Source: a virus
Lineage: Duplodnaviria > Heunggongvirae > Uroviricota > Caudoviricetes
Virus record (IMG/VR): IMGVR_UViG_2917398303_000005
Location: 1 to 29,279 of that record
Length of the DNA: 29,279 nt
Reading direction: 5' to 3' (one strand)
In this document: piece by piece, positions 1,612 to 29,279 of the stretch
Numbering within the stretch: the stretch's first letter is position 1
How the letters are laid out: the number at the start of each line of letters is the position of its first letter
Notes under the pieces: generated by a model
Told to the model about the DNA's origin: nothing
The model's database searches: none
What the model saw: only the letters and a program-made list of their open reading frames with translations
Program-made: the position numbers and the translations under genes

Positions 1612-2016
1612 TTACTGAATGTTCTTTGTCGTGGCTAAGTGGGTATTAGAGCTAATAGTCACTTTGGATTGTTCCGGTTGCTCTTGACCAGCTTTATCGC
1701 AAGTAGCTCTCGGATTCTCAAGCGCATACCCCATGAAACTAAATTTATTGAGGATTTGAACCGCTTTAGTAGTTTTTAGGTATGCCGTATTTTCTTTATG
1801 TAGCCATACTGGATAGCAAACACCATATACAGCAGTATCATAAATTTCAGGTGTGACCGTTGGCGTATCCAGAACAACAGTAATCACACCCTTACTATCT
1901 TTTATCGATAAAGGCTGCATATCATTCAACGACTTTTTAAGCACAGACAAATTGGATGGCTGAGCATGTACAGCAAAAGAAGTGAGTAACACAAGAGCAA
2001 AAATTGAACGTTTCAT
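1612..2016 (-). CDS. small secreted protein (signal peptide), moron between int and cI
   Basis: 134-aa ORF with N-terminal MKRSIFALVLLTSFAVHAQP signal peptide. AT-rich, and tightly packed between cI (stop 2025) and the next ORF. Confidence 0.6.
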   Translation of the reverse strand: MKRSIFALVLLTSFAVHAQPSNLSVLKKSLNDMQPLSIKDSKGVITVVLDTPTVTPEIYDTAVYGVCYPVWLHKENTAYLKTTKAVQILNKFSFMGYALENPRATCDKAGQEQPEQSKVTISSNTHLATTKNIQ

Positions 2017-5436: not shown

Positions 5437-7710
5437 ATGTTATGGAATCAAAAAGAAAGTCGACAGATGATACATGACGGAGGGGCATTAGATATTACTT
5501 TTGCTTATCCGTGGAATGCTCCACGGTCGGCTATAGCCAGCCCATACCTTACTTACGAGCATCAGCATCGCCGCGACCGTATGTTCGCGGCTTTGCTGCA
5601 TGCGAAAAAGGTGCTTTCTCTCCAGCCCGACTGCGTGCGGTTAGATGTTTATCGCACTGCGGCAGTGCTGGAGCAAAATCAGGGCATTCAACGAGCCAAT
5701 GCCTTTTTGATCAGCTTCTGCAAAAAGGCATTGCCGCGTCTTGAATTGGTCGCAAAAAAATACGAATGCGCGGGCATCAACAGCAAGGTATCAACCTCTG
5801 TTTTTGGAAGTCATTTTGATACCCAGCTTATGCAATATCTGGCCTCACGCATGGTTAATATGGTCGCCCGATATAACCGCCTCCCGGATATGTCGCGCGC
5901 TGATGTTGACCTGTTGGCCGCCGATATTGCTAATTTCATTCGTGGTGAACTTGCCAACATTAATGACCACGGATTCGGCGAGCTTAAAACGCTGTACACC
6001 TGGTATAATCGTGCTGGCTTTATTTCCCTCCAGTTCAACGTTATCCCACCCCATTGGGATCGGGTTGCAAAAAAATATGTCGGCGCGGATGAAATCGCAC
6101 CGGCTATCGCCAAGATGTTTAACGATGGGTGGTGGCGTGGTCGTTTGCGCCGGGTTGCAGCTACATGGCGCGAACACCTGCAAATTGCAGTCGGCAACGT
6201 CAGCAAGAAAAAAAACACCTATGCGAGTAAAAACTGCGTGACTGACTGGCGTGAACAAAAGCGCCGAACTCGTGAATTTCTCAAAGGTCTGGATCTCGAA
6301 GACGAAGACGGCAACCGTATCAGCCTGATTGAAAAATATGATGGCTCAGTTGCTAACCCTGCGATTCGCCGCTGTGAGCTCATGACTCGCATCCGTGGGT
6401 TTGAAAACATCTGTAATGAGCTCGGTTATGTCGGTGAGTTTTACACTCTGACCGCGCCGTCGAAATATCACGCCACGACTAAAGCCGGTTACCGTAACAG
6501 CAAATGGAGCGGTGCCAGCCCGGCTGACACGCAAAACTATCTAACCGGTATCTGGGCGCGTATCCGTGCCAAACTGCATCGGGAAGATGTCCGTATTTTC
6601 GGTATTCGTGTCGCCGAGCCCCATCACGACGGTACTCCACACTGGCACATGCTGATGTTCATGCTGCCGGAAGATGTTGAATATGTTCGCTCCATCGTAC
6701 GTAAATACGCGTGGAAAGAAGACCGCCGCGAACTGAAAAGCGATAAGGCCAAAAAAGCACGTTTCCACGCCGAGTCCATTGACCCGGAGAAAGGCAGCGC
6801 AACCGGCTATGTTGCTAAATACATCTCAAAAAATATCGACGGTTATGCTCTCGATGGTGAAACCGATGATGAAAGTGGTGAACTGCTGAAAGAGACAGCC
6901 CCCGCCGTTTCAGCATGGGCTTCGCGCTGGCACATCCGTCAGTTTCAGTTTATCGGTGGTGCGCCGGTGACGGTTTACCGTGAGTTGCGTCGCCTCGCTG
7001 ATACCGAAACCGCGCACGGACTGAGCGTTGAGTTTGCCGCCGTCCATGATGCCGCCGACGCTGGTGACTGGGCTGGGTATGTTAATGCGCAGGGTGGACC
7101 GTTTGTCCGTCGCGATGATTTACAGGTGCGCACACTGTATGAACCGCGTACCGAGCTTAATCAGTACGGTGAGGAAACGGTATGTATTAAGGGGGTCTAC
7201 GATTCCTCCATAGGTGCAGGGAGCCCGATATTAACCCGACTCACTCAGTGGAAGATTGTTCCGAAGCATGCTGTTGATTTGGCCGTTGACCTTCAGGACG
7301 GCAAAGCCGTCCCTCGGAGTTCTGTCAATAACTGTACGGGAAGCGAAAACGATCCACCGGTACTGGATTTGACAAAGCCCCTGAGTCGACGCGAAAGACG
7401 AGAGCTAACCAACCGACTCAGGAAGCAAAAGCCAGCAGCATGGCGAAAATTCATACACGGAACGGAGGAGCAAAACGCAGCTATAGCGAAAACTATCGAA
7501 GAGATACATCTGACAACCGGCATTAATATCAGCCGGGGCGAAGCTCTGCACTTGATGGCCGGTGGTAAAAGTTGTTTTGATGGTAAATGGCTACGCGGAA
7601 CGGCCAAAGGAGAAATATTTTCCACAGCACCATCGCATGAGGCTAAAGCCAGGAAAATCCTTAATCGTGTTGCTGCGATAGCTGAAGCATCAAAACCAAT
7701 ATCAGACTAA
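5437..7710 (+). CDS. A: replication initiation protein A (rolling-circle HUH endonuclease, P2 gpA-like)
   Basis: About 757 aa from ATG 5437 with RBS GGAGG at 5421-5425. HUH motif TPHWHMLMF and active-site tyrosine motif GYVAKYISKNIDG. Size and position match P2 gpA. Confidence 0.9.
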   Translation: MLWNQKESRQMIHDGGALDITFAYPWNAPRSAIASPYLTYEHQHRRDRMFAALLHAKKVLSLQPDCVRLDVYRTAAVLEQNQGIQRANAFLISFCKKALPRLELVAKKYECAGINSKVSTSVFGSHFDTQLMQYLASRMVNMVARYNRLPDMSRADVDLLAADIANFIRGELANINDHGFGELKTLYTWYNRAGFISLQFNVIPPHWDRVAKKYVGADEIAPAIAKMFNDGWWRGRLRRVAATWREHLQIAVGNVSKKKNTYASKNCVTDWREQKRRTREFLKGLDLEDEDGNRISLIEKYDGSVANPAIRRCELMTRIRGFENICNELGYVGEFYTLTAPSKYHATTKAGYRNSKWSGASPADTQNYLTGIWARIRAKLHREDVRIFGIRVAEPHHDGTPHWHMLMFMLPEDVEYVRSIVRKYAWKEDRRELKSDKAKKARFHAESIDPEKGSATGYVAKYISKNIDGYALDGETDDESGELLKETAPAVSAWASRWHIRQFQFIGGAPVTVYRELRRLADTETAHGLSVEFAAVHDAADAGDWAGYVNAQGGPFVRRDDLQVRTLYEPRTELNQYGEETVCIKGVYDSSIGAGSPILTRLTQWKIVPKHAVDLAVDLQDGKAVPRSSVNNCTGSENDPPVLDLTKPLSRRERRELTNRLRKQKPAAWRKFIHGTEEQNAAIAKTIEEIHLTTGINISRGEALHLMAGGKSCFDGKWLRGTAKGEIFSTAPSHEAKARKILNRVAAIAEASKPISD

Positions 7711-7784
7711 TTTATATCCATATCATGTACATACGACAATCGCCCTATTCGTTTTTTTTCTTCCCATCTTTTACCAATACGTGC

Positions 7785-10907: not shown

Positions 10908-12676
10908 TTAGTTGAACTCCAGAATAGATTTAGGCTGCATGCCGCTACCGGCGGAAAGTGGTTCGTTTAACAGGGCGTGCATGGTCGCCCATGCGATATC
11001 GGCGTGACTGGCTTCCTCGGTGCGACTGGCCTCATAGGTGGCGCTGCGCCCGCTGCTGGTCATGGTTTTGCGGATGGACATAAACGACTGCGTGACGTCG
11101 GTCGCCCCGGCGTCATACTCCAGACAGCCACGGCGAATAGTGTCTTTTGCCTTGAGCACCATCGCGGTTTTCATTTCAGGCGTGTAACGGATGCCGCGTG
11201 CCGCCGGGTAGAATGAGCGCACCAACTGGAAAACGCCGAGGCCGAGCCGGTTGCGTCAATGCCGATGTATTCGACGTTGTATTTCTCGGTCAGCTTGCGG
11301 ATGCCCTCAGCCTGCGCGGCAAAGTCCATGCCTTTCCACTGATGACGCTCCAGCATGCGGAACTTGCCACCCGAGACCACCGGCGGCGCGAGCACGACGC
11401 ACCCGGCACAGTCGCCAGTATGTGACGGGTCGTAGCCAATCCAGACCGGGCGTGAGCCGAAAGGATGGTCGGCGAACGGGGCAAAGTCCTCCCATTCTTC
11501 CATCACGTCGACCATGCAGCGCTGTAGTTCCTCGAACGGGAATACCGACGCTTTATCGTCGACAAACTCGCACATAAACAGGTTTTTAAAGTCCTCATCA
11601 CTGTTTTCGCGTTTGAGCTGGTCGAGGTCGAACAGGGTACAGCCACCGGCAAGGGCGTCCTCAATGGTGACAATCTGCCGCCACTGTCCATCGTCGCAGA
11701 GCTGACCACCGGCGAGCGCGTTGTGACTGATGTCGATTTCGATGCGGTCTGCAATACGGCTGCGCCCCTTGTTGAACAGCTCACCAGACCAGAAGGGGTA
11801 AGCGCCGTGCGCCAGCGTGGACGGTGTCGAACAGTAGGTTGAGCGCAGGTGCTTCTGCGAGGCCATGCCCGACGCGACTTTGCGCAGCTTCTGAAAATTC
11901 GGGATCCAGAATATTTCATCGACATACAGGTCGCCGTTATGGCTCTGCGCGGTGTTGGAATTGGTACCGAGAAAAATCAGCTTTGCGCCGTTGTTGCCGA
12001 TGACAATCGGGTCGCCGGTCAGGTCGACGTCGACCAGCCGCGCAAACTGGATGATGTACTCGCGGAACACGTAAGCCTGCGTTTTACTGGCCGACAAAAA
12101 TATCTGGTTGTGGCCGGTCTTGAGCGCGCGCAGCAGCGCCTCGCGGGAGAAATAGAACGTCGCGCCAATCTGGCGGGATTTGAGAATATCGCGAATACGG
12201 TGCGCCAGCCCTGCGCGGTACCACTGCAACTGGTACTCGAAAGACTGGTCGAAAAATAGTTCCTCCAGTTTCTCGATAGCCTCGTCGCTGAAAAAGTTCT
12301 TTTTCGGCTTTTTACGCTCGCCTTTGTTGCGGTTGGCGACATTGGGGTTTAGGTCGACCTCGTTGCCGGTCTGGCTGTAGCGGTTAACGCGCGCCAGTCG
12401 CTCAATCTGCCGCCCGAGCAGGTCAATTTCTTTGAAATCGCCGCCTGACTTTTGCGGCTTGGCGATGAGATGAATCAGGCGCGCCTCAAGGCTGCTTTCG
12501 ACGCGGGAAATCGGTGCGATACCGTCCCAGCCGTCGCGCTGCTTCCAGCTCTGCACGGTCGGGCGCTTGACCTGCAGCATTTCGGCAATCTGTGGCACGG
12601 AAAAGCCCTGCCAGTAAAGCAGCGATGCCTGCCGTCGCGGGTCATGCAACAAGGTTGTATCGGTGGAAATGGTCAT
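10908..12676 (-). pseudogene. P: terminase large (ATPase) subunit, P2 gpP-like, interrupted by a 1-nt frameshift near 11240-11250 (or a sequencing error)
   Basis: A 501-aa ORF (11171-12676) and a 105-aa ORF (10908-11225, VRSFYPAARGIRYTPEMKTAMVLKAKD…) are in different frames and together give about 589 aa (P2 gpP is about 590 aa). After …YIGIDATG the first frame turns into an unconvincing SASAFSSWCAHSTRRHAASVTRLK tail, while the second reads LGLGVFQLVRSFYP…. Confidence 0.7.
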
Positions 12677-24688: not shown

Positions 24689-25024
24689 ATGGCAAAAGCA
24701 CCACGTAAAACCGCTGAATTTGTTGATACGGCTGGCAATGAAATTGACACCGTAAACCCGTACGTCGTGACTCTCGACAAGCCGATTAAGCGTGCCGGTC
24801 AGACGATTGATAAAGTCACACTGATTGAGCCGAACGCAGGTACCCTGCGCGGTGTCAGTCTGGCAGCGGTGGCGCAGTCCGAAGTCGATGCGCTGATTAA
24901 AGTGCTGCCCCGCATGACCTATCCCGCCCTCACGGCGCAGGAGCTTACCGCGATGAACCTGCCCGATATGCTGTCGCTGGCCGCTAAGGTGATTGGTTTT
25001 TTGTCACCGGCTTCGGCGGAATAG
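24689..25024 (+). CDS. E: tail assembly chaperone E (P2 gpE-like)
   Basis: 111-aa ORF between the tube and tape-measure genes. Contains a slippery run near its 3' end. Confidence 0.8.
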   Translation: MAKAPRKTAEFVDTAGNEIDTVNPYVVTLDKPIKRAGQTIDKVTLIEPNAGTLRGVSLAAVAQSEVDALIKVLPRMTYPALTAQELTAMNLPDMLSLAAKVIGFLSPASAE

Positions 25025-25176
25025 ATTTCCCGCCCGACCTGTCGACCGATGACCTGATGGCGGATATAGCGGTGATATTCCACTGGTCGCCATCAGAGCT
25101 CTATTCCCTGAGCCTGACCGAGCTCATCACATGGCGCGAAAAGGCGCTGCAGCGTAGCGGAAACCACAATGAGTAA
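24689..25176 (+). CDS. E+E': tail assembly chaperone E+E' made by programmed -1 ribosomal frameshift
   Basis: Slippery heptamer TTTTTTG at 24997-25003 near the end of E. The -1 frame stays open for about 57 more codons (…FVTGFGGIDFPPDLSTDDLMADIAVIFHWSPSELYSLSLTELITWREKALQRSGNHNE) to TAA at 25174-25176, overlapping the T start. Same arrangement as P2 E/E+E' and lambda G/GT. Confidence 0.65.
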
Positions 25177-27626: not shown

Positions 27627-28112
27627 ATGATGCTTGCTCTCGGAATGTTTGTGTTTGAACTTCGCACCCTACCTTATCAGTCGATGCAACACTCGAAAGA
27701 TTACCGCTGGGTATCTAATGACCGGGTCGGTAAGCCGCCTGCGTATCAGTTTCTTGGTGAGGGGGAAACATCTCGCCAGCTTGCCGGTACGCTTTACCCT
27801 GCAATTACCGGCGGTTGGATCTCCCTCAAGGCTGTCGAGGTGATGGCTAACGAGGGCAGAGCATGGCCGCTGATAGAGGGAACCGGCAACATTCTCGGGA
27901 TGTATATCGTCGACAGAGTATCGACCACGCACACTGAGTTTTTCAGCGACGGTGCAGCCAGAAAGATTGATTTCACTCTTTCGCTTAAACGGGTCGACGA
28001 ATCACTGACGGCGATGTTTGGCGACCTGAATAAACAGGCCAGTGAGCTTCTCGGCTCTGCCGGAAATGTGGCCGATAAGCTGCAGGGTTCGCTCGGAGGA
28101 CTTACAGCATGA
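27627..28112 (+). CDS. U: tail protein U (P2 gpU-like)
   Basis: 161 aa (P2 gpU is about 159 aa). Its stop overlaps the D start. Confidence 0.85.
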   Translation: MMLALGMFVFELRTLPYQSMQHSKDYRWVSNDRVGKPPAYQFLGEGETSRQLAGTLYPAITGGWISLKAVEVMANEGRAWPLIEGTGNILGMYIVDRVSTTHTEFFSDGAARKIDFTLSLKRVDESLTAMFGDLNKQASELLGSAGNVADKLQGSLGGLTA

Positions 28113-29279
28113 TTACGGGCATGACCATTGACGCCAGTGCCAGCCTTGCACCGGCATTTATGCTGACGCTGAACAGCCAGGACATTACCAGCAATTTTAG
28201 TGACCGGCTGATTTCTCTTTCCATGACCGACAACCGGGGCTTTGAAGCTGACCAGCTCGACATTGAGCTCGACGACTCTGACGGCAAAGTCGAATTACCC
28301 CTGCGCGGGGCAGTGCTGACGTTGTGGCTTGGCTGGCAGGGTTCGGCACTTCTGAATAAGGGTGATTTCACGGTCGATGAGATTGAGCACCGGGGCGCGC
28401 CTGATACCCTGACCATCCGTGCACGCAGTGCAGACTTTCGCGGTTCGCTCAATTCCAGGCGTGAAGAATCATGGCATGACACCACCCTCGACGAACTGGT
28501 CAGCACCATTGCGAAACGCAACAAACTGACGGCCAGCGTAGCGGATGCACTAAAAAAAAATCCCAGTATCGCATATCGACCAGTCGCAGGAGTCCGACTC
28601 GGTATTTCTGACCCGACTGGCTGACCGAAACGGAGCTGCGGTATCAGTGAAAGCGGGGAAACTGCTGTTTATGAAAGCGGGGAGCGCGACGACGGTCAGC
28701 GGTAAGCCAATTCCGCAAATGACGTTGACCCGTAGCGACGGTGACCGTCATCAGTTTGCTATCGCTGACCGTGGGGCTTATACCGGCGTAACCGCTAAAT
28801 GGTTGCACACTAAAGACCCGAAGCCGCAAAAGCAGAAAGTTACGCTGAAACGACAGCCAAAAGAGAAACACCTGCGCGCACTGGAACACCCGAAAGCAAA
28901 GCCGGTCAGCAAAAAGACAAAGGCCAAAAAAGAGCAGGAAGCACGCGAGGGTGAGTACATGACCGGTGAAGCCGATAACGTGCTGGCGCTTACGACGGTC
29001 TACGCATCAAAGGCACAGGCGATGCGCGCCGCTCAGGCTAAGTGGGATAAGCTGCAACGAGGTGTTGCCGAGTTTTCAATTACGCTGGCGCTCGGTCGCG
29101 CTGATTTATTTCCCGAGACGCCAGTGCGCGTATCAGGCTTTAAGCGCGTCATAGACGAGCAATCTTGGTTAATCAGTAAGGTAACTCACAATCTGAATAA
29201 TAATGGCTTCACGACGGGGCTAGAGCTTGAGGTTCAGCTTTCGGAAGTAGAGTACAGTTCAGAGGAAGATAGAGATTGA
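28109..29279 (+). pseudogene. D: tail protein D (P2 gpD-like), frame broken at an A9 homopolymer (28552-28560), or a sequencing error
   Basis: ORFs 28109-28624 and 28647-29279 together give about 390 codons (P2 gpD is about 387 aa). The downstream frame is already open and gpD-like upstream of its ATG (IPVSHIDQSQESDSVFLTRLADRNGAAVSVKAGKLLF…). The frames switch at the A9 run; one A fewer would restore a continuous ORF. Confidence 0.7.

Follow-up and report, generated by a model that had tools for sequence, protein, structure and literature searches.

A nine-adenine tract at a frame break in tail gene D of a 186-like prophage from Escherichia cryptic clade II: a probable homopolymer miscount

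We analyzed a window of 29,279 bases (the whole stretch of DNA under study). By its gene content it is a nearly complete prophage of the P2 family, 186/PSP3 type (Eganvirus). The genes run in the order integrase, CI, early genes, replication gene A, portal, terminase, head, lysis, baseplate, fibre, sheath, tube, E/E', tape measure, U and D. In the gene order given by tblastn, D closes the late tail operon, preceded by the tape measure and gpU and followed by ogr/B. The last base of the window, 29279, is also the last base of the D stop codon; next come the late activator gene ogr/B and then host rplS (positions 11729-11947 and 12092-12439 of the source contig), and Ogr_Delta was called just past the window end in that contig. 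On the integrase side the host flank starts with an OmpA-family gene and a GGDEF gene, and the prophage sits between these genes and the rplS-trmD-rimM-rpsP operon. Near the integrase end, flanked by the CI repressor gene and a gene of the DUF2511/YebY family, lies an ORF of 134 amino acids (1612-2016, minus strand). Pfam gave no match to it and tblastn no counterpart in phage Midge, but it was also called in the related prophages (L082-L085). It may be cargo expressed during lysogeny.

The right-hand end of the window contains the following features.

27627..28112, plus strand: gene U homologue (PF06995), intact, directly upstream of D
28109..28558, plus strand: gene D codons 1-150 in the native frame (homologue of P2 gpD, the baseplate hub); the ATG overlaps the gene U stop (ATGA)
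28552..28560, plus strand: A9 homopolymer, made up of the last base of the Leu148 codon (CTA), the codons of Lys149 and Lys150, and a surplus A; in relatives the tract is 8 positions long (G+A7 or A8)
28559..28624, plus strand: out-of-frame tail if A9 is taken literally, 21 codons (NPSIAYRPVAGVRLGISDPTG), then TGA
28560..29279, plus strand: gene D codons 151-389 and stop, read in the +1 frame; by itself this fragment scores 70.1 bits against Pfam PF05954 (Phage_GPD)

In the deposited sequence, positions 28552-28560 of the plus strand are nine consecutive A's, and the tract reads CTA AAA AAA AAT C. When gpD of phage Midge was compared with the window by tblastn, residues 1-152 aligned in frame 2 (28109-28564) and residues 149-386 in frame 3 (28554-29267). 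The two pieces join, and the frame breaks, inside the A9 tract, as the preliminary description had claimed. As deposited, the ORF encodes 171 amino acids (28109-28624), namely 150 native residues followed by 21 out-of-frame residues and TGA, while the remainder of D lies in the +1 frame, which stays open as far as its stop at 29277-29279, where the window ends. Removal of one A yields an uninterrupted protein of 389 amino acids (390 codons with the stop), in agreement with the earlier estimate of about 390 codons; the single uninterrupted ORF of about 387 to 389 codons expected of the gene is thus absent as deposited and present with one A removed. Alignment with phages 186, EtG and PSP3 and with an E. 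coli prophage likewise placed one extra base in the window, within the tract. The gene D tract is the only A9 or T9 run in the 29,279-base window. However, at least one A9 arose in 41 of 100 dinucleotide-preserving shuffles of the window, and the A9 alone is statistically unremarkable.

The assignment of the gene as tail gene D was borne out. The repaired protein matched PF05954 (Phage_GPD) at 92.4 bits against a cut-off of 30.1; the C-terminal fragment alone passed the same cut-off, and the N-terminal fragment alone gave no match in the Pfam scan, the profile covering mostly the later residues. At the nucleotide level, gene D shares about 90% identity with its counterparts in 186, PSP3, EtG, Midge and many E. 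coli prophages. In these relatives D is a single ORF of 388 to 389 codons.

We then compared tract length among related prophages. The tract reads CTG AAA AAA ATC in 186 and in the E. coli prophage, CTA AAA AAA ATC in EtG, and CTG AAA CAA ATC (GAAACAAAT), with an internal C, in PSP3. Over all 68 loci fetched, 53 carried G+A7, 14 carried A8 and one carried A9. All 67 related loci were in frame, and A9 occurred only in the source assembly. To find the source contig and near-identical prophages, we used the gene U homologue as an anchor. An exact look-up of the gpU protein returned ten places with an adjoining D. Nine of them had A8 with identical tract flanks and an intact D of 389 amino acids; the tenth had A9 and no D gene called. 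The truncated product of 171 amino acids had no record in any assembly of the collection searched. Two degenerate-pattern scans of IMG/VR (25 and 57 stretches) and one of GTDB representative genomes (2 stretches), with patterns that permitted tract lengths of +0 to +3, found normal lengths in every match; the source genome lies outside these collections.

The length of a homopolymer in Ion Torrent sequencing is inferred from signal amplitude, and long runs are miscounted. The window is 100% identical to contig PDIB01000036.1 (GCA_004745285.1) of Escherichia cryptic clade II strain E4694, with 11,653 bases compared at the A9 locus, and no D gene is called in that contig. PDIB00000000, the assembly of strain E4694, was produced from Ion Torrent single-end reads of 35-400 nt at 50x with MIRA and SPAdes (PMC6639607); the reads are under SRX3260358. 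The source platform is therefore flow-based, the kind on which homopolymer miscounts are expected. In Ion Torrent bacterial assemblies, the main errors are frameshifting homopolymer indels, with adenine worst hit and runs of up to 9 involved (PMC12046094), and consensus errors are 77% deletions against 11.7% insertions (PMC12046094). The lengths at which counting fails cover runs of 8 to 9, and strand-specific deletions have also been described.

A second assembly was available as Logan SRR6148338, in which two contigs together cover nearly the whole window and both host flanks. Compared with the NCBI assembly of E4694 across about 40 kb, it showed no substitutions and differed by four indels of one base, each in a homopolymer.

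Window 8301: CCC/CC (NCBI E4694/Logan)
Window 12386: AA/A
Host terminator hairpin: GG/G
Gene D: A9/A8

The sister strain E4736 (PDHX) is set apart from E4694 by 41 substitutions across a 21-kb locus and by 103 across a second locus of 20.5 kb. Because SRR6148338 shows none, it is E4694 or a clone of it, and it probably derives from the same read set as the E4694 assembly, the link from run to strain being made by sequence identity alone. The gene D tract is A9 in the NCBI assembly and A8 in Logan, and its length is thus irreproducible between assemblies of one strain: a single-base change in a long homopolymer is not repeated by the second assembly. At the other three discrepant sites Logan is in error, each time by a deletion, and E4736 agrees with NCBI E4694. 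Because the Logan assembly is prone to deletions, its A8 could itself be an undercall of a true A9.

Some further homopolymer sites were recorded in the same comparisons. Logan SRR6053163 matched E4736 with no substitutions and one single-base deletion. Against NCBI, the two Logan re-assemblies (SRR6148338 and SRR6053163) together lose a single homopolymer base about once per 10 kb (window 8301 and 12386; L084 17631; L083 17617), and one Logan deletion adds a further break to the terminase gene of the Logan contig. Two more 8-base A or T runs occur in the window, one inside replication gene A (6208-6215, plus strand) and one just after it (7752-7759, minus strand). Both were called identically in all assemblies, which indicates that 8-mers are not always miscounted. 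In the host flank between tyrA and pheA (L084 16415, outside the window), E4694 has an intergenic T5 where E4736, SRR6053163 and SRR22121090 have T6. The T5 is common to both E4694 assemblies and represents a strain-specific single-base deletion of uncertain reality.

The prophage contains a second frameshift, in the large terminase gene.

10908..12676, minus strand: large terminase (homologue of P2 gpP), frameshifted; one G/C missing at 11245/11246, GGCCGAGGCC becoming GGCCGA-GCC

Terminase residues 1-477 and 478-589 lie in different frames, and the NCBI and Logan assemblies of E4694 share the lesion. In E4736 and SRR22121090 the lesion is absent and the terminase is intact at 589 amino acids. 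Either the mutation is real, or the Ion Torrent platform has made a systematic deletion error here. If it is real, the prophage is defective, with DNA packaging lost and selection relaxed, and a real mutation in D becomes more plausible for that reason. If it is an error, it is a further sign of the indel problem of the assembly.

Taken with the platform of the source assembly, the uniqueness of A9, the disagreement between the two assemblies and the identity of the repaired D protein with that of E4736 and of SRR6148338, these comparisons make it quite probable that A9 is an artefact, a one-base overcall of homopolymer length in the Ion Torrent consensus of E4694. Sequencing error had been raised as one possibility in the preliminary description, and with an Ion Torrent source, A8 in Logan and 67 related loci in frame it is now the best-supported explanation. 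We infer that the DNA carries A8 rather than A9. The true sequence would then read CTA AAA AAA ATC (Leu-Lys-Lys-Ile) within an intact gene D of 389 codons, which supplies the baseplate hub in a P2-family prophage of the 186/PSP3 kind. In this lineage the usual A7 was lengthened to A8 by a synonymous CTG-to-CTA change, which brings the tract to a length that flow-based sequencing no longer counts reliably, and the ninth A would have entered the consensus of the E4694 draft as an overcall. It counts for this reading that in all relatives the ancestral, in-frame state is A8 and that a frameshift at a specific site is rare in a prophage otherwise intact and near-identical to its neighbours: leaving aside the two indels, only 7 substitutions in about 26 kb separate the E4694 prophage from that of E4736. 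It counts against it that A9 is an insertion while Ion Torrent errors are mostly deletions, that the Logan assembly with A8 carries three other single-base deletions in about 40 kb, that the window's two other 8-base A or T runs are called alike by all assemblies, and that the terminase frameshift is reproduced by both assemblies.

Alternatively, A9 could be a real slipped-strand insertion, from A8 to A9, that inactivated D in a decaying or already defective prophage, an ordinary pseudogenising event without function at a hotspot of mutation. The deposited consensus does give A9, and the terminase of the same prophage is frameshifted in the two E4694 assemblies and not in E4736 or SRR22121090, which fits a defective element under relaxed selection; moreover, with Ion Torrent errors favouring deletions and Logan prone to them, the Logan A8 could be the wrong call. 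On the other hand, A9 is confined to one Ion Torrent assembly, a change in tract length was found in 0 of 67 related loci, all other genes compared with phage Midge align in a single frame, the substitutions that separate the prophage from the E4736 copy are only seven, and the platform may have produced the terminase lesion, too, as a systematic error. We consider a real inactivating insertion unlikely. If A9 and the terminase frameshift were both real, the element would merely be a defective copy of a common 186-like prophage, an everyday event. Much less likely still, and in our judgment close to negligible, is that A9 is real and serves as an expression device, either a reversible phase-variation switch operated by replication slippage or a leaky allele giving low, tunable gpD. 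Nine A or T is the length at which significant transcriptional slippage occurs in many bacteria, and Thermus dnaX uses A9 (PMC1088944); in Citrobacter rodentium, slippage on A11 rescues tssM1, which belongs to a machine resembling a phage tail (PMC4256274). The shift needed here, one A fewer or +1, would be mechanistically possible at the tract. If A9 were real, RNA polymerase might slip on it, or tRNA-Lys might slide +1 on AAA_A, so that full-length gpD would be made at a reduced level and the gene would be leaky, not dead, much as tssM1 of the Citrobacter type VI secretion system is rescued at the transcriptional level; this too we regard as highly improbable. Were it the case, replication slippage back to A8 could re-activate D.

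However, the out-of-frame arrangement is unconserved, and the relatives are all in frame with a mostly interrupted or shorter tract (CTG AAA AAA, or GAAACAAAT in PSP3). Polymorphic tract length in close relatives, as phase variation would show, was not seen among the 68 loci, 67 of which are in frame; the sole deviant is the Ion Torrent source assembly. Nor is a long uninterrupted tract kept by selection, with G+A7 in 53 of the 68 loci and A8 reached through the synonymous CTG-to-CTA change in a minority. Conserved out-of-frame ORF parts, as recoding would leave, were not found among the annotated or called homologues, which are all single ORFs of 388 to 389 amino acids. In addition, as a structural protein gpD is required in stoichiometric amounts, which makes a benefit of low or switched expression not obvious, and the existence of A9 itself is doubtful. 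Of the earlier interpretation, the anatomy and the suspicion of sequencing error stand. The reversible on/off switch is unsupported, given a tract length that is constant among relatives and tracts that are mostly interrupted and shorter; a real slipped-strand mutation is unlikely and would be an ordinary inactivation.

Two other arrangements were considered and rejected. A naturally split D with internal restart would have to use the first start in the downstream frame, a GTG at 28647, with the loss of about 30 residues, and no relative is so arranged. Ribosomal frameshifting by -1 on A_AAA_AAA would go in the wrong direction, since the downstream frame is +1.

As a probable artefact, the A9 tract is an ordinary finding, and its use lies in quality control. 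Homopolymer frameshifts in Ion Torrent, 454 and early nanopore drafts can mimic pseudogenes, phase-variable loci and recoding sites, and a check of the platform together with near-identical relatives settles most such cases fast. Phage biology would gain only under the unlikely reading of leaky expression.

Gene D resembles D of P2 and 186 (PF05954) in its nucleotide identity of about 90% to the 186-type genes, in the order tape measure-U-D-ogr/B and in the 389-amino-acid repaired product, and it differs in that the deposited ORF is broken by an extra A after codon 150, which occurs in no relative. For comparison, a genuine homopolymer recoding site occurs in the same late operon, the programmed -1 ribosomal frameshift of P2 E/E+E', which produces the tail assembly chaperone. 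In the window its slippery heptamer, T_TTT_TTG, lies at 24997-25003 on the plus strand at the end of gene E, intact and annotated in 186 and Midge; the E' frame (25003-25176) is open for 57 codons, to 25173, and overlaps the start of the tape measure at 25169. This heptamer is the one genuine conserved recoding signal in the operon. Its site is family-wide and yields two needed products, whereas the D tract keeps the frame in all relatives, where it codes a plain Lys-Lys. Poly-A slippage rescue, as in Thermus dnaX (A9), C. rodentium tssM1 (A11) and IS elements, shares with the tract a run of at least nine A's in a coding region at a frame junction. In those systems, however, the out-of-frame state is conserved or experimentally shown, while here it is unique to one error-prone assembly. 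The case differs from most Ion Torrent homopolymer errors in being an insertion, deletions being the commonest there, and in being known from assemblies rather than from reads; it resembles them in the documented platform, in the single base concerned within a long A run, and in assemblies of one strain that differ by homopolymer indels only.
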